21,410 bases of DNA from a virus (IMGVR_UViG_3300045988_119030:1-21410); one strand, 5' to 3'. Counted from the first letter of the stretch, positions 4,792-21,410 are shown. Translations and numbers: made by a program. Notes: generated from the letters alone by a model not told the origin.

Positions 4792-4821
4792 TTGGTTTAT
4801 CCCCTTTCTTTTTATACTCTT

Positions 4822-4849: not shown

Positions 4850-4877
4850 TAGGTTTTTTGAAAAAAGTTTGAAAAAA

Positions 4878-4901: not shown

Positions 4902-5163
4902 TATTCACCGGATAGTCGATTGGTTTAACCTCAATCGGCGAGTTAGCCCAGTCATAGGAAACGCGGAAAAATTCAGCACAGTGGTAACTAAAATCAGCCC
5001 AGCCAAAAGTCGCAAGATGCGATTTCCAATCTCTGAAATATGGTTCTAATTCTTGCGTGATATAGAGCGTTTCTTCGAGCCGGTCTAAAAGTTTTTCATT
5101 CTTCGCCACATGGAAAACTGCGGTGGTCTTAGTCTCAGCGTCGGTGATGATGTATGTTTTCAT
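4888..5163 (-). CDS. hypothetical protein (~91 aa, starting MKTYIITDAE...)
   Basis: RBS AAAAGGAGC-N7-ATG at 5163. Promoter at 5194-5221. The last codons plus TAA lie in the terminator hairpin at 4878-4901. Confidence 0.55.
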   Translation of the reverse strand: MKTYIITDAETKTTAVFHVAKNEKLLDRLEETLYITQELEPYFRDWKSHLATFGWADFSYHCAEFFRVSYDWANSPIEVKPIDYPVNRLEQ

Positions 5164-5193
5164 TTGAAAAGCTCCTTTTCTTTTGATACTACC

Positions 5194-5221
5194 ATTATAG
5201 CACACTTTTGGAATTTGTCAA
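5194..5221 (-). promoter_or_regulatory. promoter TTGACA-N16-TGcTATAAT for 4888-5163
   Basis: Minus strand reads ccctaTTGACAaattccaaaagtgTGcTATAAT. Confidence 0.6.
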
Positions 5222-5239
5222 TAGGGAAAATGAAAAAAA

Positions 5240-5261
5240 AGAGAAGTTTTTCAACTTCTCT
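5240..5261 (-). terminator. terminator after small peptide gene 5251-5355
   Basis: AGAGAAGTT-gaaa-AACTTCTCT flanked by an A8 / T8 run. Confidence 0.6.
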
Positions 5262-5355
5262 TTTTCAGTTTCTTTTCTGCCCATTCAATGAGTGCGCCCG
5301 CGCCGATTGTCCCAAAGTAAATGAAAAGTAAAACTAAACCGTCATGCGTGCTCAT
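5251..5355 (-). CDS. small hydrophobic peptide, 34 aa (MSTHDGLVLLFIYFGTIGAGALIEWAEKKLKKRS). Single TM helix plus basic tail. Not in the ORF track.
   Basis: RBS GGAGG-N8-ATG. The ATG begins 1 nt after the TAA of upstream gene 5356-5484 (TAAATG). Its TGA stop lies inside the terminator at 5240-5261. Confidence 0.5.
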   Translation of the reverse strand: MSTHDGLVLLFIYFGTIGAGALIEWAEKKLKKRS

Positions 5356-5484
5356 TTAATATTCCTCCACATACTCTGTAAAAACAAGCTCCCAGTCAGG
5401 GCCAAGATCCGGAGCTTTGCAGTATCGCGACTGTCGAATGTCATGCTCATTAGTGATTTTGTTGATAAACTCGAATTCATACAT
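5356..5484 (-). CDS. hypothetical small protein (~42 aa, starting MYEFEFINK...)
   Basis: RBS AAAAGGAGAT-N8-ATG at 5484. Promoter at 5517-5545. Confidence 0.45.
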   Translation of the reverse strand: MYEFEFINKITNEHDIRQSRYCKAPDLGPDWELVFTEYVEEY

Positions 5485-5516
5485 TTTTATTATCTCCTTT
5501 TTTTTACTGTACCAAT

Positions 5517-5545
5517 AGTATAGCAGATAATAGGGCATTTGTCAA
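5517..5545 (-). promoter_or_regulatory. promoter TTGACA-N17-TGcTATACT for 5356-5484 and 5251-5355
   Basis: Minus strand reads ggtaTTGACAaatgccctattatcTGcTATACT. Confidence 0.55.
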
Positions 5546-5562
5546 TACCATTTATAAAAAAA

Positions 5563-5588
5563 ATGTACGAGGTTTAATCCTCGTACAT
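5563..5588 (-). terminator. terminator after 5574-5870. The stop codon is in the loop.
   Basis: ATGTACGAGG-attaaa-CCTCGTACAT, then T8 on the minus strand. Confidence 0.6.
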
Positions 5589-5870
5589 TTCCATTAACGA
5601 TTTGATTTTTTCGATTGTATTTTCAATTTCTTCTACATAGTCGGTTTGCTCCTCACTTGCGCGCATGGCCTGTTCATATGCGTCATAGATAGTTTCGCAC
5701 TGTTCACGGGTGTAGTCTTCTTCTGGAGCGTGTTCCATGGTGACGACTGCTGTCCAAGCGAGCGTTTCTTTATCGTCAAGGTCATCGGCTTTTTCCGCGG
5801 CAGTGGCAAGCTCATGTTCGAGGCGCGTCTTTTCGAGCGAGAGGGTCTTGAGAAAATCCTTATTAGTCAT
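5574..5870 (-). CDS. hypothetical acidic protein (~98 aa, starting MTNKDFLK...)
   Basis: RBS AAAAGGAGAT-N8-ATG at 5870. Promoter at 5903-5930. Stop codon in the loop of terminator 5563-5588. Confidence 0.55.
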   Translation of the reverse strand: MTNKDFLKTLSLEKTRLEHELATAAEKADDLDDKETLAWTAVVTMEHAPEEDYTREQCETIYDAYEQAMRASEEQTDYVEEIENTIEKIKSLMEMYED

Positions 5871-5902
5871 TGTGGTGTATCTCCTTTTCATTTGATGCCT
5901 TT

Positions 5903-5930
5903 ATTATACCACTTCTGGACTGAATGTCAA
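5903..5930 (-). promoter_or_regulatory. promoter TTGACA-N16-TGgTATAAT for 5574-5870
   Basis: Minus strand reads cctaTTGACAttcagtccagaagTGgTATAAT. The iteron cluster lies immediately upstream. Confidence 0.6.
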
Positions 5931-6022
5931 TAGGTTTTTGAAAAAAATATTTATTCATCAGGGCTGTATAAATATTCATGTATAAATATTCATTTTCGGG
6001 TGTATAAAGGCGACTGGCATAA

Positions 6023-6053
6023 TGCACAAAATGGTTTCAAAATTTTTGTGCAA
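6023..6053. promoter_or_regulatory. palindrome TGCACAAAA-N13-TTTTGTGCA. Candidate operator.
   Basis: aaTGCACAAAAtggtttcaaaattTTTTGTGCAat. The same half-site recurs at 7694-7739 and 4050-4057. Confidence 0.5.
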
Positions 6054-6072
6054 TATAACTATTGCAAAACTC

Positions 6073-6097
6073 GGCGCGCTGCGGCCCACAGCGCGCC
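6073..6097 (-). promoter_or_regulatory. GC-rich hairpin (GGCGCGCTG-N7-CAGCGCGCC) with a short minus-strand U-tract, embedded in the iteron/palindrome region
   Basis: aaaactcGGCGCGCTGcggcccaCAGCGCGCCggcc. Confidence 0.4.
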
Positions 6098-6179
6098 GGC
6101 CAAATGCATATGTATGATTATTCATGTATATTCATTGCATATTCATTGTATATTTATTCATACATAATATGCGAAAATA

Positions 6180-6204
6180 GAGAGAGACTTAATAAGCCTC
6201 TCTC
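6180..6204 (-). terminator. hairpin terminator overlapping the stop of 6189-6554
   Basis: GAGAGAG-N11-CTCTCTC, followed on the minus strand by TATTTTCGC. Modest U-tract. Confidence 0.4.
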
Positions 6205-6554
6205 CATACCTTGATTATTTCATCATCTGCTATATCATCTGTGTCATTGTCGTTTATCCACAAAAGCAGAAAATCATTATCATCAATGGTCATATTCTCA
6301 ACTTCCCATTGGTTGCCGCGTTCGTCCAGTAGCGTGATGGTGTTACCATTTCGGGAAGCGACCTCTGCACCGATAAAGCGTATGCTTCCTCTCTCTGTAC
6401 CAGCGCCACACCATTCATCTAATGCGGTGAGGTCATAGGACTGCGGCGCTTCCTCACAGGCTTCCGCGGTTGTGTGGTCGTGGAATGGGCCGAAGAAAGA
6501 CACGGAGAGAATGATGGCAATGGCCATGGTGATGATTTTGGAAACGTTTTTCAT
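6189..6554 (-). CDS. predicted secreted protein (121 aa). The N-terminus looks like a signal peptide (MKNVSKIITMAIAIILSVSFFG…AEA); mature part acidic.
   Basis: ORF. RBS AAGAAAGAGGTAAAAC-ATG. Terminator hairpin at 6180-6204 overlaps the stop. Confidence 0.55.
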   Translation of the reverse strand: MKNVSKIITMAIAIILSVSFFGPFHDHTTAEACEEAPQSYDLTALDEWCGAGTERGSIRFIGAEVASRNGNTITLLDERGNQWEVENMTIDDNDFLLLWINDNDTDDIADDEIIKVWREAY

Positions 6555-6576
6555 TTTGTTTTACCTCTTTCTTACT

Positions 6577-6720
6577 TTATAGGTTAGTAGCGATAGTGAC
6601 AACAGCAATAAGCATGAGCGTGCTTGAGACAGCTTTACCTACATTCTTGCTATCTATGGCATAGACAAAATTATATGCGCTTATAGCAGTAAGCACAATG
6701 ATAGCGGCGATGATAGACAT
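6577..6720 (-). CDS. small membrane protein, 47 aa, 2 hydrophobic segments (MSIIAAIIVLTAISAYNFVYAIDSKNVGKAVSSTLMLIAVVTIATNL). Not in the ORF track.
   Basis: RBS AGAGGGGAG-N8-ATG. Lies between 6751-7224 and 6189-6554 on the same strand. Confidence 0.45.
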   Translation of the reverse strand: MSIIAAIIVLTAISAYNFVYAIDSKNVGKAVSSTLMLIAVVTIATNL

Positions 6721-6750
6721 GGCATATGCTCCCCTCTTTGAGCGAGTGGG

Positions 6751-7224
6751 TTAAACCCACTCGCTGAATAGCTCGCTGATGAAGTCATCGTGGACATCAT
6801 CAGGCAGTTGGTCGATGGTACACTCATAGGTGCTTACCACGGTAAGCGATGAGCCATTTTCAAGGTTCTCGCGCTCAAACTTATCCCGTTCACCAGATGA
6901 AAGAAAAAATGCGGTATAATCGTAAGTGTCTTCTCCATCATTGATGGAATAATCCACCACCTTAAAGCGCATCTTGTTCCAGAGGTTCGCTATGATGGAA
7001 AGATCCATAGCCAGCTCTTCCTCGCGGCGGACAGCTTCGAGAGACGCCTTATACTTGCGCCATGCGGCTACCGTAAAGTCTCTTATGCCGCACCCGATAA
7101 GACAATGGTATTCCTCTAAGTCTTTGATAACCAGTTTGCGTCCCTCGCGCACCATATCCCAAGCATCTTCTGCCATTGCGTTGATGGTGACAGCATCATA
7201 TTTATGCAAGCCCTGAATTTTCAT
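6751..7224 (-). CDS. hypothetical protein (157 aa)
   Basis: ORF. RBS GGAAGGG. The TAA stop sits in the loop of hairpin GCGAGTGGGTT/AACCCACTCGC (6741-6766). Confidence 0.55.
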   Translation of the reverse strand: MKIQGLHKYDAVTINAMAEDAWDMVREGRKLVIKDLEEYHCLIGCGIRDFTVAAWRKYKASLEAVRREEELAMDLSIIANLWNKMRFKVVDYSINDGEDTYDYTAFFLSSGERDKFERENLENGSSLTVVSTYECTIDQLPDDVHDDFISELFSEWV

Positions 7225-7305
7225 TGTATAGCCCTTCCGCGCTTTTTGCGCTATCGTGTTATATGTAGGTATGTTCCCCCATGTGGGGAGTGAGGGCTTG
7301 CGCCC

Positions 7306-7599
7306 TCACTTTGCAATCTTTGTAGTAACGGAAGCCGCACGCGGCGCGCCAGTCTTCTTGTACTTATCAAAGCACTCGGCGTAGAGTTTCGGCGCTTTGT
7401 TGCGGAACATCACCGTGTCGAGCGTTTCAGTAGCCTTGCCACCCTTGCCAACAATAACAGTAAACTTATTGTAAGTAAAGGTAACGCTTTCGCCGTTAGC
7501 TTCCTCGCGGGCTTCTGCCTTGAGCAATTCTAACTGTTCCTTGAGCGCGTCTATCTGCGCGGAAATCTCGCACATTTTTTTAATTTTATTGTTCGTCAT
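7306..7599 (-). CDS. hypothetical protein (97 aa). First gene of the leftward module.
   Basis: ORF. RBS GAGGAT. The TGA stop lies within terminator stem GTGAGGGC/GCCCTCAC (7291-7312). Confidence 0.55.
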   Translation of the reverse strand: MTNNKIKKMCEISAQIDALKEQLELLKAEAREEANGESVTFTYNKFTVIVGKGGKATETLDTVMFRNKAPKLYAECFDKYKKTGAPRAASVTTKIAK

Positions 7600-7693
7600 T
7601 TTTGAATCCTCATTTCATGCAATTTACTGTTCGGTGTTCCGCCGTTCAGCATGGTTACATGGTAGCAGATTCAGCCACGGAATACAATTGACA

Positions 7694-7739
7694 GATTGCA
7701 CAAAGATTTGTTTTGTACGGGGCGGGTTTTTGTGCAATC
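7694..7739. promoter_or_regulatory. palindrome GATTGCACAAA-N24-TTTGTGCAATC. Second copy of the candidate operator.
   Basis: Perfect 11-bp arms. Lies in the 400-bp noncoding region upstream of the first leftward gene. Confidence 0.5.
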
Positions 7740-7777
7740 TACCGCCGGGCGGCACCCTTGCATCATACCTTTGCATT

Positions 7778-7801
7778 TTTATTCACTCAAAAATGAATAA
7801 A
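7778..7801. repeat. inverted repeat TTTATTCA-N8-TGAATAAA (the iteron motif in palindromic arrangement)
   Basis: ttTTTATTCActcaaaaaTGAATAAAac. Confidence 0.45.
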
Positions 7802-7895
7802 ACCTGCATAGAGGGGGGTGTATTTCGGGAAAAATAAATTTTTATTTATCGTTTTTTCTTTTGCCTGGTCAAAACACAATCTAAATCAATTTTCA

Positions 7896-7935
7896 ATTTC
7901 AAATCACGAAATAATTTAAAATTTCAAATTACGAC
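7896..7935. repeat. imperfect direct repeat ATTTCAAAT(C/T)ACGA(A/C) x2, spaced 25 bp
   Basis: ATTTCAAATCACGAA at 7896-7910. ATTTCAAATTACGAC at 7921-7935. Confidence 0.4.
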
Positions 7936-8025
7936 TTCTTTTTTCTACCTCTTTTAGGCTTCTCACCCCACATAAAAGTGTATAATCCAGAAGTAGCAGA
8001 ATATGTAGCTTTCTGCTGATACTTT

Positions 8026-8421
8026 TTAGCAGCTGCTTTCAAGGGGTTGAGGGGTTTCCGCATTTAATTTTTCCTCCATATATTCGATTAATTTATCTTT
8101 ATATTTACAACTATCAATATATCTATTAATAGTATCTATATCATATTTTTCCATTAAGTGCTCTAATACATATTTGTATTTATTTAACTGATATTCTTCT
8201 TGTTCTTCTTTAGTGCTTAATTGGGCCTTTTCCGCGTCTGATAAAGGTTTATAAGTAATTGTTCTTGACCCATTATCCTTTTGCTCAATACGTATTGTTT
8301 TAAATAATTTCCAATCTCTTACAAAAGGATCTTTATCTCTTGTGGCGTTAAAATATTCTTGTTCTAATCTAAATATTACTGCGTCTATCCCTCTTACTTC
8401 AAAAGGCTGGTTCCGCCTCAT
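8026..8421 (-). CDS. hypothetical protein, AT-rich (~131 aa from MRRNQPFEV...). The track start at 8454 is also possible.
   Basis: ORF. Internal RBS GGGAGG-N9-ATG at 8421. Confidence 0.45.
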   Translation of the reverse strand: MRRNQPFEVRGIDAVIFRLEQEYFNATRDKDPFVRDWKLFKTIRIEQKDNGSRTITYKPLSDAEKAQLSTKEEQEEYQLNKYKYVLEHLMEKYDIDTINRYIDSCKYKDKLIEYMEEKLNAETPQPLESSC

Positions 8422-8638
8422 TTTCAATATCCTCCCATTCAAATGTTCCATCATCTAATTCATATACAAATGCCTGTTTATAGAATGATGAAACAATTCC
8501 ATCATTTGCGATTCCTTTTGGACTATTTTTCGCATCATGGAAACAATTATAAACAATTAGTCCTTGCGTTTCATATCGCGAAAAATCTACTGCCCTTCCC
8601 TCAAAATCATAATTATAAAATATGTTTAACAATAGCAT
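8399..8638 (-). CDS. hypothetical protein (79 aa), AT-rich. Overlaps the start of 8026-8421.
   Basis: ORF. A leftward promoter candidate at 8821-8849 gives a long leader. Confidence 0.4.
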   Translation of the reverse strand: MLLLNIFYNYDFEGRAVDFSRYETQGLIVYNCFHDAKNSPKGIANDGIVSSFYKQAFVYELDDGTFEWEDIENEAEPAF

Positions 8639-8677
8639 ACACTCATATTGTGCGATTGGCCATTTATTTAATTCTTT

Positions 8678-8705
8678 TTGCTAATTTGCCATTTTTTGGT
8701 ATAAT
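8678..8705 (+). promoter_or_regulatory. candidate rightward promoter TTGCTA-N16-TGgTATAAT upstream of a 10-codon ORF (8746-8778) with RBS AAAGGAG
   Basis: Plus strand reads tttTTGCTAatttgccatttttTGgTATAAT. Confidence 0.3.
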
Positions 8706-8820
8706 ACCCAAAAGGCTTTTCTATATAACCATAAAAAAAGGAGTGATGCTACTAATGCACAACTCAATAATACAATAAAAATAATTTCCATAAATACTCT
8801 TTTTCTTTTTTCTTATAATA

Positions 8821-8849
8821 ATAATAAAATAAAAAATAAGAAATGTCAA
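8821..8849 (-). promoter_or_regulatory. candidate leftward promoter TTGACA-N17-TATTAT for 8399-8638 / 8026-8421. Divergent from the rightward promoter.
   Basis: Minus strand reads cgacTTGACAtttcttattttttatttTATTAT. Long AT-rich leader. Confidence 0.35.
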
Positions 8850-8931
8850 GTCGTGGAGCGTAATTGGGCAAAAGTTATTTGTTTTGTTAAAAAAATTTTT
8901 AAATATAAAAAGAAAAAATTTTAAATGAAAC

Positions 8932-8960
8932 TTGACAAAAAAAATTTTTTCGAGTATAAT
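8932..8960 (+). promoter_or_regulatory. consensus promoter TTGACA-N17-TATAAT for the first rightward gene (8985-10040)
   Basis: Plus strand reads aaacTTGACAaaaaaaattttttcgagTATAAT. GGAGG RBS and ATG 25 nt downstream. A-rich upstream. Confidence 0.6.
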
Positions 8961-8984
8961 ATAAATATAGACTGGAGGTAAAAA

Positions 8985-10040
8985 ATGATAAAACTTGATT
9001 ATTCTTTACAAACTCCAGAAGAAAGAAATCAATTAGTCGAACAAATTTTGGCTGATAATCCAGATCCGCCTGAAAAGTATTTAGAAATTTTAGCAGACTA
9101 TTTGGTTCTTTGTATGGAGAAACAAGAAAAAAAGGAGAAAAAATTATTAACTGATAATCGTATGGCTACAGTTAATAAGCGTGAGACTTCTTTTGAAGGT
9201 CTTGTTTCCCAACTCGAAAATGGCGAAGATGGAATTTATAATTTAATTACAGATAATAGAAATACAATATTTCAACCACATATTACAATTACAAAAAAAG
9301 ATTTAGAAGAGATACCAAGTTTAAATTAGTTAAGAGAAGCCATTAATGTTTGGGAGGCTAAATTAAAAGTAACAGAAGGAAAAGATGCTTTTGTTATTAA
9401 AAAGGCTCTTATTGAAATGCGTAAAGATTAGTATGTTATGAAAAATGCTTATCGTCGTCCAATAGTGCCTACAAAATTAACCAGATCAAAGTCTTATATT
9501 CCATTAGATGATAAAACATTTATTTTTGATGATGATGGTTTTCCCATTCCTGATGGAATTAGTTTATTAAGACCTGAAATATGTTCTGCGGTTTTATGTA
9601 ATTATTCCCGACTAAAACAAGATAGTTGGGGCGAATATGATAAAGATTTATGGTATTTAATGGAGGATTTTGATAAGCTTTGTGATAAAGCCTTAGCTAA
9701 TTATCCTCTTTATGATAGAATCGTTGAATATAAAATTGATGGTTTACAAAATATTGACATTCAAGAGAAAATACAAATGGAATTTGGTATTAAACATAGT
9801 CTTGAATATATTTCAAGTTTATGGCGTAATAAAATTCCAAAATTAATTGCTTCGACTGCGGAAGATGAATATTTAGATAATTATTATTTAAATGTTGAAA
9901 AAGGTAAATATAAAAAATGTAGTCGTTGTGGTAAAATAAAATTAGCTCATAATAAATATTTTAGTAAAAATAAAACAAGTAAAGATGGCTTTTATAGTAT
10001 TTGTAAAAGTTGTCGAAATTCTAAGGCCAAAAAATCTTAA
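8985..10040 (+). CDS. zinc-ribbon protein (352 aa if TAG is read through). Two in-frame TAGs at 9327-9329 and 9432-9434. C-terminal CxxC…CxxC motif. Function unknown.
   Basis: Single frame 8985-10040, interrupted only by TAG and ending in TAA. Consensus promoter at 8932-8960. RBS GGAGG-N6-ATG. Confidence 0.6.
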
Positions 10041-10089
10041 TGTTGTCCTTTTGTTTATAATAAATAGTTGAAAGGAGAATATTTTATTT

Positions 10090-11277
10090 ATGGCTGAAAC
10101 ATATTATTGCGAAAAATGTAATCGCACAATGAATGGCACGGAATTCTATTCATCTAATAATTTAGAAAAATATCCTAATGATGGTAAATTTCCTGTGTGC
10201 AAAAAATGTATGACAATGCACGTCGATAATTGGAATCCAGATACTTATTTATGGATTTTACAAGAAGCGGATGTTCCTTATGTTCCAGATGAATGGAATA
10301 AATTAATGGAAAAATATGGGCGCGATCCGCAGTCTATGACCGGTATGACGATTCTTGGACGTTATTTGTCAAAAATGAAACTCAAATAGTTTAAAGATTA
10401 TCGTTGGAAAGATACAGAATTTTTATAGTAGATGGCGAATAATAAATTAGAGCAAACTATGAAGCGTCAAGGATATGATGCTCAATAGATTGCAACCGCT
10501 ATTAAAAAAAGTTCTATTGCTATTCCAGAAGGAGAACTAAAAGAGCCGGTTTATGCTCCACCGCCTAATGCCCCTACGGAAGATTATTTTGCACAATAGA
10601 GTGGTGAAGTTGAACAAGAATTAGACTTAACTGATGAAGACCGCACTTATTTAAGACTTAAATGGGGCAAGACTTATAAACCTGAAGAATGGGTTAAGCT
10701 TGAATAGTTGTATGAAGAAATGATGGCTTCTTATGATATTCAAGGTGCCGGACATAAAGATACGCTAAAATTAATATGTAAGACATCTTTAAAGGCAAAT
10801 CAATTGATCGATATTGGTGATATTGAAGGTTTCCAAAAGATGAGCAAAGTATACGATAGCTTGATGAAGTCTGGTAAATTTACTGCTGCTCAAAATAAAG
10901 CAGAATCAGGTGAATTTGTTGATTCAATTGGCGAATTAATTGAATTATGTGAAAAAGAAGGATATATTGAAAGATATTATGTTGAATAGCCACATGATAA
11001 AGTGGATTTAACTATTCAAGATATGCAACGTTATACTCGCACTCTTATTGAAGATGAAACTAATATCAGCACAATGGTAGAAAAAGCTTTGCGCGAAAAT
11101 GCTAAAGAAGATGAAGAGAAAGCAAAGAACGCGGAAAGCGATATCGTTGATGATGCTGATTTAAGTATTGAAGAACTTGAAAAAACTATTAAAGATAGTG
11201 ATTACGCGGATTTTGAGGAATTTAAAGAATAGGAGTCCGCGCAAGATAATGAGTTCTTATAGAGTTTGGATAAATAA
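10090..11277 (+). CDS. protein with N-terminal CxxC…CxxC zinc ribbon (~395 aa). Nine in-frame TAGs including tandem TAG-TAG at 10431-10436. Possibly small terminase or another DNA-packaging protein by position.
   Basis: One continuous frame joining ORFs 10090-10389, 10708-10989 and 11002-11232. All interruptions are TAG. The TAA stop overlaps the terL ATG (TAATG). Confidence 0.5.
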
Positions 11278-13016
11278 TGGCATTACAAGATTTACTGTAG
11301 TTAAGTGATAGCCGTAGAAAAATAGGTCTATCACCGGAGCGAGTAGAAGCGGTAATGCCCACTATCCGCAAATACGTTGCCTTTTGGAGAGAATATCCTG
11401 ATTTATTTGTAGATTTTATGGTTCGAGGAAGACGCACTGAAATAAAAGATGGAGAATTTAACTTTTATTTTTATTAGAGAGTATTTCTCCGTTCTGTTAT
11501 GCGTTATTAGTATGTTTACGCGGTTTTTCCTCGTGCTTATTCCAAATCATTCTTGTCTGTTATGGCATTAATGATTAGATGTATTTTATATCCTGGTGCG
11601 CATTTGTTCGTTACTTCTGGAGGTAAAGAACAAGGTGCTAGTATTCTTCATGATAAAGTTCAAGAAATATGTGAACTTATTCCAAGCTTTAATCGAGAAA
11701 TTGATTGGAGCCGAGGAAAAACTCTTGAAGGAAAAGATAAAGTTAGATATGTGTTTAAAAATGGTTCAGTTTTGGATAACCTCGCAGCCCGTGAAAGCAC
11801 TCGTGGTTAGCGTCGTCATGGTGGACTAATGGAAGAATGTGTTGGTATTGATGATACCATTCTTCGTGAAGTTATTATTCCTGTTATGGCAATTTCTCGT
11901 AGAGCTAAAGATGGCACTACTAATGAACAAGAGCCATTAAACAAATCACAAATCTATATTACTACTGCTGGTTATAAGGGCACATTTCCTTATGATAGAC
12001 TTATTGGTTTCTTAGTTCGTATGGTAACTTAGCCTGATCGTTGTATGGTATTAGGCGGAACATGGCGAACTCCTGTTGCAGTAGGATTACAAAGTAAAAC
12101 ATTTATTACTGACCAAAAGAATGAAGGAACTTATAATGAAGCTTCATTCGAACGTGAATACGAGTCTAAGTGGTCAGGAACTGTTGAAGATGCTTTCTTT
12201 AATGGAGAGCATTTTGATAGAAATAGAAAACTATTATAGCCTGAATATGAAGCTTCTGGACGTGCGGGCGCGCAAGCTTATTATGTGCTTTCAGTAGATG
12301 TAGGTCGTAAGGGATGCGATTCAGTAGTTTGTGTATTTAAAGTAACACCACAAGCTCAAGGTCCAGCTATTAAATCTTTAGTAAATATGTATACTATGTC
12401 AGATGATCATTTTGAAGATTAGGCTATTAAATTAAAGAAATTATTTTATAAATATAAAGCTAAAACTTTGGTTATAGACGGTAACGGTTTAGGTATTGGA
12501 CTTTTGGATTATATGGTAAAATCTCAAAATGATGAAGACGGTGAATTTTTACCTGATTTTGGTGTTGAGAATGATGATGATGGATATTATAAAAAATATC
12601 GTACACAAAATACTCAATTTGATGCTATGTATGTTATTAAAGCAAATGCTCCAATAAATACTGAATGTCATGCTAATGCTCAGACTCAATTACAGGCGGG
12701 TAAGGTAAAATTCTTAATAGATGAGAGAACAGCTAAAGAAAAATTATTAGCTACTCAAAAAGGTTCAAAAATGACTTCTGAACAAAGGGCAGATTATTTA
12801 AAACCATTTACTTTAACCTCCATATTAAAAGAAGAAATGATGAATTTACGCGAAGAAAATGAAGGTATTAATATTATCCTAAAATAGGCAAATCGCGGAA
12901 TTCGTAAAGATAAATTTTCGGCTTTTGAATATGGATTATATTATTTAAAACTTGAAGAAGATAAAAAGAAAAAACGTAAAAAGTTTAATGCGGCTGATTG
13001 GTGCTTTTTAAATTAA
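11277..13016 (+). CDS. terL: terminase large subunit (~579 aa). Eight in-frame TAG codons, at 11298, 11475, 11508, ~11806, ~12030, 12237, 12420 and 12885. Ends with TAA.
   Basis: Frame-0 continuity across ORFs 11553-11810, 11829-12032, 12045-12239 and 12468-12887. N-terminal ATPase Q-motif FY*RVFL followed by a Walker-A-like PRAYSKS. Walker-B-like STRG*RRHGGLMEE. C-terminal nuclease motifs YVLSVDVGRKGCDSVV and VIDGNGLGIGLLD. Confidence 0.8.
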
Positions 13017-13028
13017 GGAGGGTGGAAA

Positions 13029-13385
13029 ATGCGTGCTTCAAGAGGAGAAATTAAAATTGAAGAAATCTTAGAAGAAGCAGGACTACCTTTTAAAATGGAA
13101 TATATTTTTCCAGATTTAAAAAGCCCAAGCGGGCGTCCGCTTCGTTTTGATTTTGTTATATTTGATGATGATGGAAAAATTGATTTCATTATTGAGTATT
13201 AGGGAAAATAGCATTATGAAGCCAGTTCTAAATTTGGTGGAAAACGCGGTTTATACCAGTAGCAATATAATGATAATCAAAAAAGACGTTTTTGCGCTTT
13301 ACATGATTTTAGATTAATAGAGATTCCATATACCGACGAAAACCTTATTTCTTATGATTATATAATGAAATTAGCAGGTTATTAA
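13029..13385 (+). CDS. Vsr/DUF559-like endonuclease-fold protein (118 aa; restriction-endonuclease-like fold). Probably a free-standing homing-type endonuclease. Three in-frame TAGs.
   Basis: RBS AAGGAGGG-N6-ATG. Motif RPLRFDFVIF…IDFIIEY*GK*HY resembles the DUF559 …DF…iE.DG.QH signature. This is from memory, not a search. Confidence 0.5.
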
Positions 13386-13398
13386 AGGAGGTGGAACT

Positions 13399-15048
13399 TT
13401 GGATACGCAAGATCGTAATGATTAGATTCACGCTAAAGGTTTTGATATTTATAATAGTCGTTATGAATATAATTATAATGATACTATGGATTATGCTAAT
13501 AGAAAAATAAAAGTTGGCACAAAAACTTTAGATGATGCTATTTTAAAACTTGGTGATTATAGTAAGATTAGATACCCAGGTCAAACTCGTATTATCACGA
13601 AACCTGATGTGCTTCGCGCGCTCGCAGAAAGAGATCTAAATGCTTTGCGATATATTTCTAATTTTTATTATGATATAAGTGGTGTATATCAACGAGTTTG
13701 TAATTATGTTGCTTTTTTATACCGCTATGATTGGTATATCGCGGCCGAAACTTATGATGATAGTGTAAAAGAAGAAAAAGTTTTAAAAGATTTTTATAAA
13801 ATGTTGAATTATTTTGATAATAGTTATATTAAAAAGATTTGTGGAGATATTGCTTTACAAGTCGTTAAAAATGGATGCTATTATGGATATATAGTTCCTT
13901 CAGAGAAAAATCTAATTTTACAAGAATTGCCAGTTAGATATTGTAGAACACGTTATAGTGTAAATAATACCCCAGTTGTCGAATTTGATATGCGATTTTT
14001 TGATACTTTTAGAGATATGAATTACCGCTTAAAAGTATTAAAATTATTCCCAGAAGAATTTGCTAAAGGTTATGTTTTATATAAGCAAGGAAAACTTGCT
14101 TTAGAAGAAGCGGTTGGATGCTAGCATACTGGTAGTTGGTATGTTCTTGAGCCAGAAAATTGTATTAAATTTAATATTAATAATAGTGATGTTCCTATTT
14201 TTGTAAATTCCATTCCTACTATTATGGATTTAGATGCAGCGCAAGATCTTGACCGCAAGAAACAAATGTAGAAGTTGCTTAAAATTTTAGTCCAAAAGCT
14301 CCCAATGGATAAAAATGGTGATTTGATATTTGATGTTGATGAAGCCAGAGATATCCATAATAATGCCGTTTAGATGTTATAGAGGGCTATTGGAGTAGAT
14401 GTTTTAACTACATTTACTGATGTAGATTCTATTGATATGTCTGATAAGAATACTACTACAACGACAGATGATTTAGCTAAAGTTGAACGTAGTGTTTATA
14501 ATTCATTAGGTATTTCATAGAATTTATTTAATACTGATGGTAATATGGCTTTAGAAAAATCAGTGTTAAATGATGAATCTACAATAAGAAGTTTAATTTT
14601 ATAGTTTAATATATTCTTTAATAGAATTATTGAGAAAAAGAGTAGTAATAAAAAATATAATTTTAGATTTTATTTATTAGAAACTACTCAAAATAATTAT
14701 CAAACACTTTCTAAAATGTATAAAGAACAAGCGCAAATGGGACAATCAAAATTATTGTCTTAGATTGCTCTTGGACATTCATAGAGTTTTATTCTTAATG
14801 CAGCTCATTTTGAAAATGAGATTTTACATTTAAGTGAAATTATGATTCCTCCTCTTATGAGTTCTACTATGGGTAGTGAAGATATTTTGGGTTTAAAAGG
14901 TTCATCATCTAATAATAAAACTCAAAATAATTCAGGAAGTTCAGGTTCTGGAACTACTAAAGCTTCTAATGGCGAAGCAGGACGTCCGGAAAAACCTGAT
15001 GATTAGAAAAGTGAAAAAACTATTCAAAATAAAGAAGCAATGAAATAA
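13399..15048 (+). CDS. putative portal protein (~549 aa, about 10 in-frame TAGs). The call is by position after terL and by size. The start may be TTG at 13399 (RBS AAGGAGGTG-N5) or ATG at 13486.
   Basis: Continuous frame 1 from 13399 to TAA at 15046-15048, interrupted only by TAG. No motif recognised by eye. Confidence 0.4.
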
Positions 15049-15057
15049 GGAGGATTT

Positions 15058-16641
15058 ATGAAACATACAAGTATTAAATTAAATACACCTTGTGAGTTTA
15101 TAAATATAACTCCTGTAAATCCTTTAATTTCTAAATGCCAAATTAAGGTTTGTTATGTAGATGATAAGCCTAATCGTAATAAAAGCGTAATTACTAAAGA
15201 TGTAGCGACTGAGATGGCTAATAGTCTTCCGGGCAGTCCTATTGTTGGCTTTTTTAATGAGAATGCTGAAGATTTTGAAGAACATAATAGGATAATTGAA
15301 TTATCTAATGGCGAATTTAGAATGAGAGATAATACTCGCCCTTATGGTTTTGTTGATCTTGGAGCTAAAGTTTGGTTTTAGAAATTTTTGGATGATGGTG
15401 TTGCCGAACGTGAGTATTTAATGACTGAAGGTTATTTGTGGACTGGTTAGTATCCTGAGTGTAAACGTGTAGTTGAGAAAGGGAATAATCATTCTATGGA
15501 GCTTGATGAAAAAACATTAAATGCTACGTGGGCAAAAGATAGTAATGGAAAGCCTTAGTTTTTTATTATAAATAAGGCAATTATTTCTAAACTTTGTATT
15601 TTGGGAGAAGAAAATGAACCTTGTTTCGAAGGCTCTCAAATCAATGTGAATTTTTCATTCGATGATGGTTTTAAGAACACTTTGTTCTCCATGATGAATG
15701 AACTTAAAGAATTTATGAAAGAAGGAGGACCCAAAGTGTTTACACAATATGCTGTTGAAATTGGCGATAGTTTGTGGAATTTTCTCTGGTCTTATATTGA
15801 GACTAAGTATCCTGGCGAGCCTAGTAGTTATTGTTCTATTTATCGCATTGAAGGCATTTATGAAGATGCTGGACAAAAGTTTGCTATTCTTCAAAATAGA
15901 CAAGATCAAAAATATTATCGCATGGACTTTTCTCTTACCGATGTAGAAGGCTTTGTTCCTTCTGACGCTTTAATTGAAGTAACTAAGTCTTATACTCCGG
16001 CAGCAGAGCCTCAGTTTGCTCTTGCTGATGTTGAAGCTTTTGAGACTGATTATGCTTCAAAGAAAAAGGCTGAGGAAGAGGACAAAAATAATAAATCTAA
16101 TGGCCAAAACCCTGATAATAAATCAGAGAGCAATGATAATAAAAAGAACCCTGATAATGGGGAACCCTCTAATAAGTCTGATAAAGGCGACAATGGTGAG
16201 AATGATGATAAAAAGAAAAAGAAGAATTATTCTCTTGAAGAAGTTGTTGAATATACTGAACTTAAAGCTCAGTATGATGAATTACAGACTAAATTCGCAG
16301 CTCTTGAAACTGAAAATAATAGCTTGAAAGAGCAAATTGCTCCACTTGCTGAATTTAAAAATGCTGCTGAGAAGAAAGATAAAGAAGATATGATTGCTAA
16401 ATTCTATATGCTTTCTGATGCAGATAAGGCTGATGTTATTGAAAATATTGATAAATATTCTCTTGATGATATTGAAGCTAAATTATCTGTTATTTGTGTT
16501 CGCAACAAGGTGAGTTTCGACCTTGACGAAAATAATAAGCCCAATGGTGCTACTACTTTTAATTTGAACGATAATGGTTCAGAAGATGATGATATGCCCG
16601 CTTGGGTGAAGGCGGCTTTTGCTACCGCCAACAAAAATTAA
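15058..16641 (+). CDS. putative prohead protease and/or scaffolding protein (~527 aa). N-terminal globular domain with 3 TAGs. Central K/D/N/E-rich low-complexity linker. C-terminal coiled-coil (ELQTKFAALETENNSLKEQIAPLAEF), which is scaffold-like.
   Basis: ORFs 15058-15381 and 15601-16641 share a frame and are joined through TAGs at 15380, ~15448 and ~15556. RBS AAGGAGG-N5-ATG. Located immediately upstream of the capsid genes. Confidence 0.45.
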
Positions 16642-16658
16642 TAAGGAGGACATACTAA

Positions 16659-17576
16659 ATGTTTAAAGACTTTTTGAATAAGAATCTTCCTATTAAGTCT
16701 CAGGCAAAGTATGTTGAGTTTGGTTACGGTCAGGTCGAGCCTAATCACCTTTCCGCACAAAGAAATGCTCAAATCTATGCTCAACTTCCTGCCAATAAAG
16801 ACATTAAGATTCTTGAAAACGGTCAGTTTGTAAAGTATGACTATGCTGCTAATGATAATGGTATTGGCGAAGTCAACTTCACTGGCGAAGGTGAATGGAT
16901 GCTCGTTTATAACGAGATCAAGCTTTATCGCGATCATTATGATGGCAGTAAGCAGTGGGATTGCGAATTTGCTATGATTAAAGATGACTATCAGGCTCGT
17001 GTTTATAGCCCTTATGATTGGGAGCATACCGAGGTTGAATATGGTGGTCGTTTCTGGAATGGTGTTGATGAAAAGGGTCAAACCTATAAGTTAATCAATC
17101 AGACCGTTTCCGCAGATCAAGGTTTAAAGACTGTTACTATTGCTGGTCGTGTTTATGATGTTGATGAAACCGGCAAGTTTACTTATGATGGTAATGAATA
17201 TACTCTTGATAGTAATCATCAAGTTAAGAATGTCCCTGTAAAGTATTATTATGATAAACTTCTTACTGATGTTCCTGATATGTATGAAATGAATTGGACC
17301 AATGATCCATATCATAAGTTAGGTATTTATCATGAGAAGTTCATGGAATCTGGCACTTCTATGGTTCCTCGTGTATTTAAGACCATGATTGGTGATCTTT
17401 ATACTACTAATATGATTAATGAAGAGACTCTTGCTGTTGGAGATAAGCTTTCTCCTTCTGCTGCTACAAAGGGTATTCTTAGCAAAACTGGCGACGATTC
17501 AATGACCTGGCAGGTTGTTAAGGTTTATACTATGCCTGATGGTCAAAAGGGCGTCAAGGTAATGCGTATTAAGTAA
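16659..17576 (+). CDS. hypothetical structural protein (305 aa). No in-frame TAG. Possibly a capsid decoration or accessory protein.
   Basis: RBS AAGGAGG-N9-ATG. T-ending codon bias like the MCP gene. Lies between the scaffold-like gene and the MCP. Confidence 0.55.
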   Translation: MFKDFLNKNLPIKSQAKYVEFGYGQVEPNHLSAQRNAQIYAQLPANKDIKILENGQFVKYDYAANDNGIGEVNFTGEGEWMLVYNEIKLYRDHYDGSKQWDCEFAMIKDDYQARVYSPYDWEHTEVEYGGRFWNGVDEKGQTYKLINQTVSADQGLKTVTIAGRVYDVDETGKFTYDGNEYTLDSNHQVKNVPVKYYYDKLLTDVPDMYEMNWTNDPYHKLGIYHEKFMESGTSMVPRVFKTMIGDLYTTNMINEETLAVGDKLSPSAATKGILSKTGDDSMTWQVVKVYTMPDGQKGVKVMRIK

Positions 17577-17593
17577 GAAAGGAGAAAAGGATA

Positions 17594-18700
17594 ATGTTAG
17601 ATAAAAATAATTTAATTGCTCTTATGAAGCAAGTTGCTAAGGCTGATCCTTCTGCTCCTGTTGCTTATAGTTATGAGGGAAAAAATCTTAGTTATGAAGC
17701 CTTAAATGAAACTCTTCGTAATGAAATGAATGAGTTGGCTGGTACTTACGCTCTTTATCGTGAAAATAAGAATCTTATTTTCTCTATGATTGAGCAGACT
17801 CTTGATGAGGTTCTTCCTAAGAAAGTTATTCAGCAATATGATCAGTTTGCTGAGGTTAAGACTTTCGCTCAGGGTGATAAGCCCATTTTCCGTCGTCCTC
17901 TTAATAATCGTGCTCGTGCTAAGCAGTTTGTAACTCGCGTTGGTCTTGCTGGTATTTATGAAGTCTTCAAGCTCGGACCTAAAGAGAATGAAGCCTTCGA
18001 GGTACGTACTAGCGCTATCGGCGGAGCTGCTCAGATTGGCTTCGAAGAGTTCCTTGATGGTCGTGTTGATTTCGGTGAAGTAACTAAGATCATCATGGAT
18101 GGTATGGATGAACTTATTTATAAAGAAGTTGCTGCTGCTCTTAGATCTTCTATCAATCAGCTTCCTCCTGCTAACCGCGTTGCGGCTGCCGGATTTGATG
18201 AAGCTGCTATGGATCGTTTGATCACTATTGCTTCTGCTTATGGTACTCCTACTATTTATTGTACTTATGAGTTCGCTGTTAAGATGATTCCTCATGAGGC
18301 TTGGAGATATACTGAAGCTATGAAGAACGAGCTTTGGAATAATGGTCGTCTTGCTACTTACAAGGGCACTAAGGTTATTATTCTTGAACAGGGTTTTGAA
18401 GATGAAACCAATACTCGTAAGGTTATTGATCCTGGTTATGCTTGGGTTATTCCTACGGGCGCTGATGGTAAGCCTGTAAAGATTGCTTTCGAAGGTGGCA
18501 CTATTGTTGACGAGTTCAATAATTATGATCGTTCTCGTGAGATTCAGGTTTACAAGAAGGTTGGCGTAGTTTGTATGCTCGCTAATAACATCTGTGCTTA
18601 TGTTGATACTTCACTTCTCGGTCAGATGTATACTTGGAATTATGATGGAGTTACTGGTAAGGTTATCACTTATGATGGTCGCCTTGATGGTACTGTCTAA
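17594..18700 (+). CDS. putative major capsid protein (368 aa). No in-frame TAG.
   Basis: RBS AAAGGAGAAAAGG-N-ATG. The size and position after the scaffold gene fit an HK97-fold MCP. Strong terminator at 18721-18760 directly downstream. Highly biased T-ending codon usage. Confidence 0.5.
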   Translation: MLDKNNLIALMKQVAKADPSAPVAYSYEGKNLSYEALNETLRNEMNELAGTYALYRENKNLIFSMIEQTLDEVLPKKVIQQYDQFAEVKTFAQGDKPIFRRPLNNRARAKQFVTRVGLAGIYEVFKLGPKENEAFEVRTSAIGGAAQIGFEEFLDGRVDFGEVTKIIMDGMDELIYKEVAAALRSSINQLPPANRVAAAGFDEAAMDRLITIASAYGTPTIYCTYEFAVKMIPHEAWRYTEAMKNELWNNGRLATYKGTKVIILEQGFEDETNTRKVIDPGYAWVIPTGADGKPVKIAFEGGTIVDEFNNYDRSREIQVYKKVGVVCMLANNICAYVDTSLLGQMYTWNYDGVTGKVITYDGRLDGTV

Positions 18701-18720
18701 TTTAATATAAATTATTCCAT

Positions 18721-18760
18721 GGGGAGAAGGGATTAAACTCCCTCTCCCCATATTTTTGTT
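18721..18760 (+). terminator. strong rho-independent terminator after the putative major capsid gene
   Basis: GGGGAGAAGGGA-ttaaac-TCCCTCTCCCC followed by ATATTTTTGTTTT. Confidence 0.7.
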
Positions 18761-18786
18761 TTATGAGTAAAAGGAGAAATTGAATA

Positions 18787-19380
18787 ATGATTAATAATGA
18801 AGATATTTATAATGTAAAAAATAGAAGCACTAGCGTAGTTGTTTATACTATTCCTGATACTAATTTGCGTCGTGAATTTGCGCCTGGTGAAACTAAGCGC
18901 ATTCCATTTGGTGAGCTAGAGAAGTTAACTTATCAGGCAGGCGGCCGCGAATTAATTGCTAATTTTTTACAAATTTTAGAGCCAGAAGTAACTCATACCC
19001 TTAATGTTCATACTGAACCTGAATATAATATGTCAGAGCAACAAGTTGCTGATTTAATTCTTAATGGCTCATTAGATGCTTTCTTAGATGCTCTTGATTT
19101 TGCCCCTATTGGAATTATTGACTTAATCAAGAATTTATCTGTTAGCCTTCCTATTACTGATATTAATAAGCGTAGAGCTTTGAAGGAAAAAACTGGGTTT
19201 GATGTTGATAAAGCTATTGCTAATGATATCGCTAGTAAAGAAGAAGATACTATTGTAGAGAAAGAACCCGCAGCTAAGCGTCGTGTAGTAAGAGAAGAGC
19301 CTACTACTCAAGGTCGTCGCACAAGCGGTTCTGGATATAAAGTAATTAATAAAACCGAGGAAACTTCCTCCAAGAAATAA
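18787..19380 (+). CDS. hypothetical head or connector-associated protein (197 aa). No TAG. Basic C-terminal tail.
   Basis: RBS AAAAGGAGAAATTG-N-ATG. TAA stop. Confidence 0.5.
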   Translation: MINNEDIYNVKNRSTSVVVYTIPDTNLRREFAPGETKRIPFGELEKLTYQAGGRELIANFLQILEPEVTHTLNVHTEPEYNMSEQQVADLILNGSLDAFLDALDFAPIGIIDLIKNLSVSLPITDINKRRALKEKTGFDVDKAIANDIASKEEDTIVEKEPAAKRRVVREEPTTQGRRTSGSGYKVINKTEETSSKK

Positions 19381-19399
19381 TTTATAGGAGGGCGATTAA

Positions 19400-19972
19400 G
19401 TGGGAACATTATTCTCAACTGTTTATAATCGCTTTCTAAACAAGGTTACTGATGATATGTATCTGGAATTGACTCCTGAAGATACTCTAAGAGATTTATA
19501 GAATCTTATAATAGATGCTATTCCTGGATTTGAATTTCCGCGAAAAAATCTTTTAGATTATAATTTAGATGTCGCTACTATTAATGAATCTGACGCTATG
19601 CCGGATGATTTTATTGTAGGAACAGTATGGGGGGAACTTCCAGAACCGGGTGAAGAACCTCAAGTTTTAGTTGATAGATCCAGTTTTAATTGTGATCTAA
19701 CTGAAGAAGAAATTAATATTTTAGCTATTTTAATGATGTGCGGTTGGACGCAAAGACAAGTCACTTCAATTGAGAATACTCGAATGAAATATAGTGGCTC
19801 TGATTTTAAATTTACTTCTTAGGCAAATCATCTATCAAAGCTATTGAATTTATTAGGTGAATGCCAAAGACAATCTCACCATATGTAGCGTTTATACAAA
19901 CGTAGACGTTTAAATAATAAAGGTGAGTATGAATCTAATTGGGATGTATTTAAAAGTCGATATGATTACTAA
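19400..19972 (+). CDS. hypothetical head-tail connector or adaptor candidate (~190 aa). GTG start, 4 in-frame TAGs.
   Basis: RBS TAGGAGGGCG-N5-GTG. Frame-2 continuity through ORF 19598-19822 to TAA at 19970-19972. Confidence 0.4.
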
Positions 19973-20253
19973 ATATAATTTTGATATTCCAATAGAGAGC
20001 ATAAAAGTAAATTGCTTGCGCTTAACCAATCAATTATGGAAATTAATTCCAATGCGTGAAAATAATGAAGATTGGCATAAATAGCTAGAAACTGTTATAA
20101 ATGAAATTGTGGGGTTTAGTGTGATTTTTAGCGCTGAACCCCTTTATTTATAGTTATTAAACAAACTTGAGGGATTATAGAATCAAGATACTGATTTTAA
20201 TTTTTATCGTAAGACTGTATTTGAAACTATCAGTCTTTTATAGGAGATAAATT

Positions 20254-21318
20254 ATGGCGTCAGGGTTTGATTATAGTAGTAAGCAACCTTTTAGATTATA
20301 GCAAGGTCGCTTAGGAATTTATGATAAACCACCCTTTGAAAGTAGCCCTGTTGAAGGCGTTAATTATATGGCGGTTCGGCTCGGTTAGATGGGCGGAAAC
20401 CGCCAACAAGAGCGTATGATTTTATCTAAGCGCAGAAGTTTAGATAGAGCAGTATGGAATTCATACCAAGCCGCGGAAATTATTAAATAGGATGCGGAAT
20501 ATAAAAAACCTATTAGGTGCTTGATTAATCCTAATAAATTAAAATAGGATTATGATGACAAGATTTTATCTGTTGGAAATGAATATTAGTTTAAACCAGG
20601 AGATATTTTTGAATGGTGTGGAACTAATACCTATTGGATTTGTTATCTTTAGGATTTGACTGAATTAGCTTATTTTAGAGGAGATATTAGAAAATGCTCT
20701 TATAAAATAAATTGGGTAGATGAGGGAGAGAAAAAGTCTACTTATGCAGCAATTCGCGGTCCTGTAGAAATGAAAATTAATTATATTCAAAAACATGAAA
20801 TTAGTGTAGATATTCCTAATTATTCATTAAATATTTTGATGCCTAAAAATAAAGATACTTTGAGTTATTTTAAGCGGTATACAAAATTTTATTTAGATAG
20901 TTAGGATGAGGGAGATAATTTAATTTGTTGGCGTGTTGAAGCTGTAGATTCCATAAGTATGCCCGGTATTTTAGAAGTCAATGCGACTGAATATTATATT
21001 AATGAGTAGGAAGATAATTTAGATGATAAGATTGTTGGTTCTTTAATTGCGGAACCGATTGATCCGAATCCTACAACAACTGATATTATAGGGGAAACGT
21101 TTATTCTTCCGAAGAAAACTTATACTTATTATTTTGATGGTAAGGATGTTTTAGAATGGGAAATAAAGAATAATAAAAAGTTGCCGGTTTCTTTAAAAGT
21201 TATTAAAGAAGCAAAAAAGCCAACAGTTGAAATAAGTTGGACTTCTGGATATAGTGGATAGTTCGATTTACTATATGGAGATTATAAAAAAACGATAATT
21301 GTTCAATCATTGTTTTAA
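20254..21318 (+). CDS. hypothetical structural (tail?) protein (~354 aa), about 9 in-frame TAGs
   Basis: RBS TAGGAGAT-N6-ATG. Frame-1 continuity through ORF 20656-20904 to TAA at 21316-21318. Confidence 0.4.
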
Positions 21319-21333
21319 GGAGAAAAAGGTGTT

Positions 21334-21410
21334 ATGAAGATTGATAGAGTAAAAATTCCTAAATCCAGTTTCTTATCTATGGAAAAGGATTTAGAAATTG
21401 TTGTAAATCA
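21334..21410 (+). CDS. 5' end of the next structural gene (MKIDRVKIPKSSFLSMEKDLEIVVN…). Runs off the window.
   Basis: RBS AAGGAGAAAAAGG-N5-ATG. Confidence 0.4.
   Translation, partial: MKIDRVKIPKSSFLSMEKDLEIVVN

Follow-up and report, generated by a model that had tools for sequence, protein, structure and literature searches.

A stretch of viral DNA of 21,410 nucleotides (nt) (IMGVR_UViG_3300045988_119030:1-21410, hereafter the window, in the sense of the whole stretch that was analysed) raises the question whether the triplet TAG, which recurs inside most genes of its rightward packaging and head module, is a stop codon or a sense codon, which amino acid it would specify, and what would decode it. 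A sequence-only reading had proposed that TAG is a sense codon (genetic code 15, TAG as glutamine) from position 8985 to the window end. The comparisons reported here bear that proposal out in its main part: in the packaging and head genes of the window, UAG is read as glutamine, in agreement with genetic code 15.

When only TAA and TGA were allowed to terminate translation, the plus strand from 8982 to 21318 was tiled nearly without gaps by 12 open reading frames (ORFs), with gene starts taken from database calls on a contig 99.995% identical to the window. Across these 12 contiguous genes (8985-21318, ca. 4060 codons) the in-frame stop triplets were 50-52 TAG, 0 TAA and 0 TGA, and no frameshifts were present, which agrees with the earlier description of single frames interrupted only by TAG, and never by TAA or TGA. 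TAG accounted for only 15.8% of the stop triplets in the other two frames of these genes, and on this basis the probability that ca. 52 random interruptions would all be TAG is about 1e-42. ORFs of at least 100 amino acids (aa) covered 55% of the region under code 11 and 98.6% of it with TAG as sense; treating TGA or TAA as sense instead gave only 56% and 63%, respectively. The comparison of codes 15 and 11 thus gave the longer proteins that the sequence-only reading had expected, and a code-11 reading broke the rightward genes into fragments. TAG represented 30% of the glutamine-type codons of the module (52/171), and terminated none of the 35 complete genes of the window.

The frame arithmetic and the per-gene TAG counts offered earlier were right (8 in TerL, 3 in the endonuclease, about 10 in the portal, 3 in the YonD-like gene, 9 in the last gene). 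Two points needed amendment here: termination in TAA, claimed for every frame, applied to 11 of the 12 genes, the twelfth being a previously unlisted gene at 19929-20270 (g11) that has four TAGs and ends in TGA; and TAG was found in nine of the 12 genes, three consecutive ones (16659-19380) being free of it. The rightward genes are listed below with the positions of their TAGs.

8985-10040, +, first rightward gene, 351 aa, C-terminal CxxC...CxxC zinc ribbon; 2 TAGs (9327, 9429); ends TAA
10090-11277, +, YonG-like gene, 395 aa, N-terminal zinc ribbon; 9 TAGs (10387, 10426, 10429, 10486, 10597, 10705, 10987, 11230, 11260); ends TAA
11277-13016, +, terminase large subunit (TerL), 579 aa; 8 TAGs (11298, 11475, 11508, 11808, 12030, 12237, 12420, 12885); ends TAA
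13029-13385, +, small endonuclease-like gene, 118 aa; 3 TAGs (13200, 13209, 13260); ends TAA
13399-15048 (database start ATG 13486), +, portal protein; 10 TAGs (13423, 14122, 14269, 14371, 14380, 14518, 14602, 14761, 14782, 15004); ends TAA
15058-16641, +, YonD-like gene, 527 aa; 3 TAGs (15379, 15448, 15556); ends TAA
16659-17576, +, head-module gene g7, 305 aa; 0 TAG, 7 CAG and 7 CAA; guanine-cytosine (GC) fraction 0.38; ends TAA
17594-18700, +, major capsid protein candidate (YonB family), 368 aa; 0 TAG, CAG in 10 of 12 glutamine codons; GC 0.40; ends TAA
18787-19380, +, head-module gene g9, 197 aa; 0 TAG; ends TAA
19457-19972, +, g10, 171 aa; 3 TAGs (19499, 19820, 19886); ends TAA
19929-20270, +, g11, 113 aa; 4 TAGs (20082, 20151, 20178, 20241); ends TGA
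20254-21318, +, g12, 354 aa; 9 TAGs (20299, 20386, 20488, 20545, 20587, 20650, 20902, 21007, 21259); ends TAA
21334-21410, +, 5' end of a YomW-like gene, cut off by the window end

The amino acid inserted at TAG was assessed from codon-level and standard-code comparisons at three evolutionary depths; database proteins had been called with code 15, with glutamine (Q) at TAG set in advance, and were therefore excluded as independent evidence. Within the species, 20 conspecific strains had TAG 936 times at the window TAG sites, CAA 43 times, CAG 36 times and another codon 3 times, so that 79 of the 82 changes (96%) were to CAA or CAG, and changes to TCG, TTG or TAT/TAC never occurred. TAGs of these strains stood opposite CAA in 24 cases, CAG in 12 and another codon in 1 case of the window. 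At the second depth, 16 TAG-free sister loci had Q opposite 60.8% of the window TAGs and opposite 56.2% of the window CAA/CAG codons (background 4.1%), Q being the majority residue at 30 of the 50 window TAG sites. TAG served as terminator in 16 of 192 orthologues of these loci, which shows that they use the standard code. At the greatest depth, Q was again the top residue opposite TAG (36/143, background 3.6%) in five cultured standard-code phages (EF1, a Staphylococcus SPbeta-like phage, Sundance, Kirov and PMBT69), and at TerL residues 67 and 382 it occurred without exception in the standard-code outgroups. Serine, leucine and tyrosine were outside the eight commonest residues opposite TAG in the TAG-free relatives and showed no enrichment.

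As the sequence-only reading had anticipated, homologues aligned across the TAG sites: the portal matched PHROG 2739 over residues 77-550, with the TAG positions spanned, and BLASTP matches to EF1, Sundance, Kirov, PMBT69 and the Staphylococcus SPbeta-like phage were collinear across these sites. Homologues did not end at the TAG positions but had glutamine there. Glutamine opposite TAG in standard-code relatives, together with the exchange of TAG for CAA and CAG among strains, indicates that TAG is glutamine here and acts as a synonym of CAA/CAG.

The window itself gave no tRNA with ARAGORN and no match to Rfam, and tRNA scans of ten loci to ca. 9-10 kb past each side of the window gave none. 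A pattern made from the anticodon and T arms of the three suppressor tRNAs of phage phAss-1 was then scanned over IMG/VR, and matched four contigs that also hold this TerL (3300045988_110853, _126226, _126669 and _118370) and share 95.5-96.2% identity with the window across 15-19 kb. In each of the four, ARAGORN located a 90-nt tRNA with the anticodon CTA within a tRNA array, for which the Rfam tRNA model gave 56-58 bits against a cut-off of 29.

L147, 7965-8054, 90-nt tRNA(CUA)
L150, 9078-9167, 90-nt tRNA(CUA)
L169, 3369-3458, 90-nt tRNA(CUA)
L202, 1688-1777, 90-nt tRNA(CUA)

The tRNA(CUA) has a variable region of ca. 21 nt with a 3-bp hairpin, a U1 unpaired with position 72, a G73, no encoded CCA, and a Gln-like D-loop (TAATGG) as in the phAss-1 phage tRNA-Gln(CUG). 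Its presence in four conspecific genomes implies that the species of the window encodes its own amber suppressor tRNA. A further ARAGORN call, 'tRNA-SeC(tca)' in L150, was dropped, being without support from the Rfam tRNA model and folding poorly; no Rfam match to theta ribozymes or to those of the HDV (hepatitis delta virus) type was obtained beside the tRNAs.

The same molecule, the one suppressor tRNA observed in this species, provides the argument for decoding of UAG as serine, leucine, tyrosine or pyrrolysine in place of glutamine, through G73 and through its long, class-II-like variable region of 21 nt with a mini-hairpin. Glutamine tRNAs belong to class I, and such a molecule is thus odd for a tRNA decoding glutamine; the seryl- and leucyl-tRNA synthetases do not read the anticodon, and the default ARAGORN label for CTA anticodons is 'Pyl'. 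The substitution data point the other way, with Q opposite 61% of the TAGs in TAG-free relatives, serine, leucine and tyrosine missing from the top eight residues, and the within-species changes passing almost solely to CAA/CAG. The unpaired U1 and the TAATGG D-loop also favour glutamine, and in phAss-1 a tRNA-SUP-CTA gene was typed as Gln by tRNAscan-SE (PMC10607447). Decoding as another amino acid is contradicted by these comparative data and considered very improbable.

Nor is a dedicated reassignment easily replaced by low-level natural read-through or by a host amber suppressor, for which the lack of a tRNA in the window and its ca. 9-10-kb flanks would speak. With 8-10 TAGs per gene, and 45 in the first 1236 codons of the tape-measure gene of a near-identical relative, leaky decoding would leave a negligible yield of full-length protein; conspecific genomes carry their own tRNA(CUA), and TAG terminates 0/35 window genes. 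This explanation is very improbable. The supE-type amber suppressor of Escherichia coli is a tRNA-Gln with a CUA anticodon that competes with release factor 1; unlike it, the tRNA of the window species is encoded by the phage, has a long variable region, and would serve dozens of essential sense positions.

The window corresponds to ca. 9.3-30.7 kb of a 190,642-bp ENA contig (ERZ27260930 k119_3975; 99.995% identity over 20,134 bases), and a Logan contig was 100% identical to it over 7028 bases. IMG/VR holds many contigs of 158-197 kb with TerL 97-99% identical, and when the TAG-free genes served as anchors for protein look-ups, the exact g9 protein was found indexed in 1692 assembly-collection blocks. 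Pfam families precomputed on near-identical proteins were YonG_N, YonD_N, YonB, YomW, YomV and YomU_Tube, all families of the Bacillus prophage SPbeta. The window belongs to an SPbeta-like siphophage of ca. 190 kb, one very common in metagenomes of the human gut. No match was returned when the whole window was compared by megablast with 50,697 phage records, and by tblastn of the portal the nearest described relative was phAss-1 (38.5% identity). No crAss-like phage was among the best 25 portal tblastn records or the leading genus tallies, all named entries being phages of Bacillota.

Lineages free of TAG, in which TAG is used as a terminator, make up about one quarter of the related loci, with TerL 59-73% identical.

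TAG-free related loci: L092, L094-L098, L101-L107, L111-L114, L120, L124, L028, L031, L037

Ranked by TerL identity, the TAG-free loci interleave with lineages that have 1-14 TAGs per gene, and within 60-90% protein identity the clade forms a series that runs from members without TAG through lightly recoded ones (1-3 TAGs per gene) to heavily recoded ones with 8-14 per gene. This interleaving may reflect repeated gain or loss of recoding, or graded recoding, in one clade. Contigs of the clade had been binned into metagenome-assembled genomes (MAGs) labelled Acutalibacteraceae, Bacteroidales, Treponema, Mollicutes, Tenericutes, Lachnospiraceae and others; these are probably mis-binned phage contigs, and phage sequence may make up most of some MAGs named 'Mollicutes' or 'Tenericutes'.

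Such data also bear on whether the genes could be pseudogenes of a decaying prophage or defective element, with the TAGs as inactivating nonsense mutations, as might be suspected from their fragmentation under code 11 and from the size of some carrying contigs (>190 kb). Decay of this kind is highly improbable. Only one stop type interrupts the genes and frameshifts are lacking; the frames and most TAG sites are conserved over lineages at 60-99% protein identity and recur in many independent assemblies; and TAG is exchanged with glutamine codons, and almost only with these, as if synonymous. The exact g9 protein in 1692 collection blocks and the recurrence of ca. 190-kb contigs argue in the same direction, and the inconsistent MAG taxonomy suggests mis-binning of phage contigs and not prophage integration. 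The sequence-only reading had likewise judged pseudogenisation unlikely.

Recoding is uneven along the module. Not one TAG occurs in g7, the capsid gene or g9 (16659-19380), against an expectation of about 14 (P about 7e-7), and this exclusion holds in ca. 60 recoded related loci. Over ca. 80-100 related loci, TAG occurred 0.16 times per 1000 codons in the major capsid protein gene, 0.44 in g7 and 0.97 in g9, and 3.6-21 times in the other nine genes. The three genes have a higher GC content (0.35-0.40), and CAG use in g7 and the capsid gene is far above that of the neighbours. The CAG share of CAA+CAG in g7, the capsid gene and g9 was 54-80% in all related loci; in the 16 TAG-free relatives it was 64-76%, against 19-38% in the neighbouring genes, and the higher GC was kept there too. 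In a near-identical relative, the tail-tube gene had 0 TAG and the tape-measure gene 45 TAGs in its first 1236 codons. TAG thus behaves like a non-preferred synonymous glutamine codon. In moderately expressed genes it stands mostly in place of CAA, and it is kept out of the capsid gene and the two genes beside it, whose distinct codon usage presumably serves high expression. Exclusion of TAG from the capsid gene is absent from the bioRxiv paper of Borges et al. (10.1101/2021.08.26.457843; 'capsid', 0 occurrences), the wider literature being unchecked, and in Peters et al. (PMC9523058) the word occurs once, for proteins identified from code-15 predictions and not for TAG avoidance.

The part of the window to the left of the recoded module was organised as follows.

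65-8421, -, block of 22 small leftward genes, each of 34-157 aa; 0 in-frame TAG; stops 17 TAA, 5 TGA, 0 TAG
8399-8791, -, first leftward gene, 130 aa; one TAG at codon 37 (8681-8683); ends TGA
8792-8984, divergent control region, AT-rich (GC ca. 0.28), with promoter matches within 8821-8960

The leftward block reads identically under either code and is thus code-neutral; it is presumably the early arm. The range of recoding had been put at 8985-21410, which proved too narrow on its left side by one gene: the first leftward gene, a small membrane protein with an N-terminal transmembrane helix upstream of the TAG that is conserved in relatives, carries a TAG as well, so recoding is not strictly confined to the rightward operon. 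In the control region, the consensus sigma-70-type promoter pattern (TTGACA-17-TATAAT) was matched at 8932-8960 on the plus strand (12/12 positions), directly ahead of the first recoded gene (8985-10040, 2 TAGs), and at 8849-8821 on the minus strand (11/12).

An intergenic repeat of 45-65 nt occurs in at least 12 copies in 1-8900, ahead of most of the small leftward genes.

Examples of intergenic repeat copies: 33-79, 2585-2631, 2800-2846, 3200-3260, 3574-3653, 4802-4866, 5174-5238, 5486-5565, 5883-5947

On the minus (coding) strand the repeat reads TTGACAAA, a spacer of ca. 17 nt and TATAAT, followed by AAAGGnAAGGG and ATG. By pattern match the unit (TTGACA-17-TATAAT plus Shine-Dalgarno sequence) is a consensus sigma-70-type promoter with a ribosome-binding site. 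It recurs many times in relatives, although conservation does not extend to the genes that separate the copies. A GC-rich inverted repeat (AAAACTCGGCGCGC...GCGCGCCG) was present in two copies (1222-1254 and 6066-6098) in the AT-rich left arm, and these may be terminators or protein-binding sites.

GC content falls from ca. 0.42 (1-8000) to ca. 0.28 (8000-10000) and is 0.28-0.39 from there to the end, and the GC skew changes sign near 8-9 kb. An assembly or sequencing artefact, or a chimera of two unrelated sequences, which this step and sign change could suggest, has a negligible probability, as the composition changes where the coding strand switches, the same divergent architecture occurs in all relatives, and the junction is spanned by the independent 190,642-bp ENA contig (99.995%, 20,134 bases), with the Logan contig at 100% over 7028 bases.

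The explanation that we hold with high confidence as a whole is an SPbeta-like gut phage that translates TAG as glutamine by means of a phage tRNA(CUA), with a code-neutral left arm and with recoding as a putative gate on the late genes. Once expressed, tRNA(CUA) would outcompete release factor 1, and full-length terminase, portal, YonD-like, tape-measure and other late proteins would be made only after the suppressor tRNA has accumulated. In this way recoding would gate the late genes at the level of translation, the model put forward by Borges et al.

Several points weigh against this explanation. Neither a tRNA nor a release factor nor an aminoacyl-tRNA synthetase was found in the window or within ca. 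9-10 kb on either side, and the suppressor tRNA comes from conspecific genomes and was not seen on the very contig that matches the window. Its 21-nt variable region resembles that of class-II tRNAs (Ser/Leu/Tyr), G73 fits serine too, and the proposed charging with glutamine is argued from comparative data only. The timing and the gating role are what we infer from the arrangement of the sequence, and with the first recoded gene behind a consensus host-type promoter, the recoded genes need not all be transcriptionally late. A host was not found via GTDB genomes, and the MAG-bin taxonomy of 22 loci (L021-L042) was inconsistent.

Profile searches gave further indications on individual rightward genes, local Pfam and NCBIfam searches giving nothing useful for most window genes. 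The first rightward gene matches PHROG 5767, labelled 'sigma factor'; a PDB sequence search was empty, and Foldseek gave no match at E <=0.001 with a model of predicted local distance difference test (pLDDT) 61. With this label unconfirmed, the idea of a TAG-gated regulator of late transcription was not built upon. The YonG-like protein matched phrog_3314 (PF27269 YonG_N being precomputed on a near-identical protein), and in Bacillus phage Kirov its orthologue carries the annotation putative small terminase; that of the YonD-like orthologue in Kirov is putative prohead protease. The structure model of g7 was unusable (pLDDT 47).

TerL matched phrog_2, phrog_15503 (245 positions, residues 11-210) and phrog_24618 (230 positions, residues 354-579). 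The latter two, of 'unknown function', gave E-values of 1e-50 to 1e-59, and look like families made from code-11 fragments of recoded terminases. The small gene downstream matches PHROG 559/9084, with a Pfam DUF2726 match just below threshold, and lies between TerL and portal in Enterococcus phage EF1 too. In EF1 (MF001358, L009 3200-6308) TerL is present as two ORFs flanking an annotated HNH homing endonuclease ('Phage intron'), and only its C-terminal half aligned to the window TerL as one ORF. For the portal, translation probably starts at TTG 13399, five bases past the Shine-Dalgarno sequence AAGGAGGTG (13385-13401), rather than at the database ATG 13486. The TTG start lengthens the protein by 29 residues and one TAG (13423), and raises the TAG count from 9 to 10.

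Among described phages, phAss-1 (OQ749652) is the closest parallel by portal search. It has TAG as glutamine and three tRNA-Sup-CTA genes (Babkin et al. 2023, PMC10607447), and three tRNAs with anticodon CTA were also seen in our scan; the surrounding monophyletic group, including EF1, was described in the same paper, and NCBI taxonomy holds a 'Caudoviricetes code 15 clade'. Like the window phage, phAss-1 is a human-gut siphophage with SPbeta/EF1-like synteny of packaging and head genes, with TAG as glutamine in TerL, portal and other virion genes, and with tRNA-Sup(CTA) genes as part of a large set of tRNAs; no dedicated synthetase has been reported. Its sup1 tRNA (L043 23443-23533) and the tRNA of the window species have the anticodon arm, the T arm and the unusual variable region of ca. 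21 nt in common. The two differ in sequence (portal 38.5% and TerL 44% identity, no megablast match), in genome size (136 kb against ca. 190 kb) and in TAG load, phAss-1 having far fewer TAGs in the same region; relatives of phAss-1 are reported as rare, whereas the window lineage is far more prevalent. Placement in the proposed genus Phassvirus, defined by nucleotide identity of ca. 80% or more and synteny with phAss-1, was rejected on these identities, and placement in Crassvirales by portal homology was rejected with only SPbeta-like phages of Bacillota among the best portal matches.

The cultured SPbeta-like phages (SPbeta, EF1, Sundance, Kirov and PMBT69) share the gene order of YonG-like gene, TerL, (endonuclease), portal, YonD-like gene, small gene, YonB capsid, YomW, YomV and YomU tube, at pairwise identities of 21-49%. 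They differ in using the standard code, their orthologues being intact under code 11 with glutamine opposite the window TAGs. For the alternatively coded gut phage clades of Borges et al., the authors' interpretation is that early genes are translated in the host code and late genes are translatable only after the suppressor is made (bioRxiv 10.1101/2021.08.26.457843). The window phage resembles these clades in the focus of recoding on structural and lysis genes, in early genes compatible with the standard code, in phage suppressor tRNAs, and in recoded and standard-code genomes interleaved in one clade. Its genome size is within that of their ca. 150-210-kb clades, to one of which it may belong. 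For crAss-like phages, peptide proof of TAG as glutamine was obtained by metaproteomics (Peters et al. 2022, PMC9523058). They are alike in having TAG as glutamine in late structural proteins and in inhabiting the human gut, but form an unrelated podovirus order infecting Bacteroidota, and the peptide proof is for them only.

Reassignment, its restriction to structural genes, phage suppressor tRNAs and mixed codes within a clade are all already published, and the window phage is a further, very prevalent member of the known code-15 phages, of low novelty in these respects. For annotation, standard-code gene calling fragments this abundant gut phage and misses TerL, portal and tail genes, so code-15 calling is needed. 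The series from TAG-free to heavily recoded members makes the clade useful for studying stop-codon capture. Tentatively, and with less expectation of being right than wrong, we suggest that TAG is a low-efficiency glutamine codon which selection keeps out of the capsid gene and its neighbours (here also the tail-tube gene) and which spreads in low-copy TerL, portal and tape-measure genes, and that it is decoded by an atypical glutamine suppressor with a class-II-like 21-nt variable arm conserved across lineages with 44%-identical TerL. If both parts were true, the TAG load of each gene would set protein stoichiometry as well as timing, and the odd tRNA architecture might enable charging or escape from host control.

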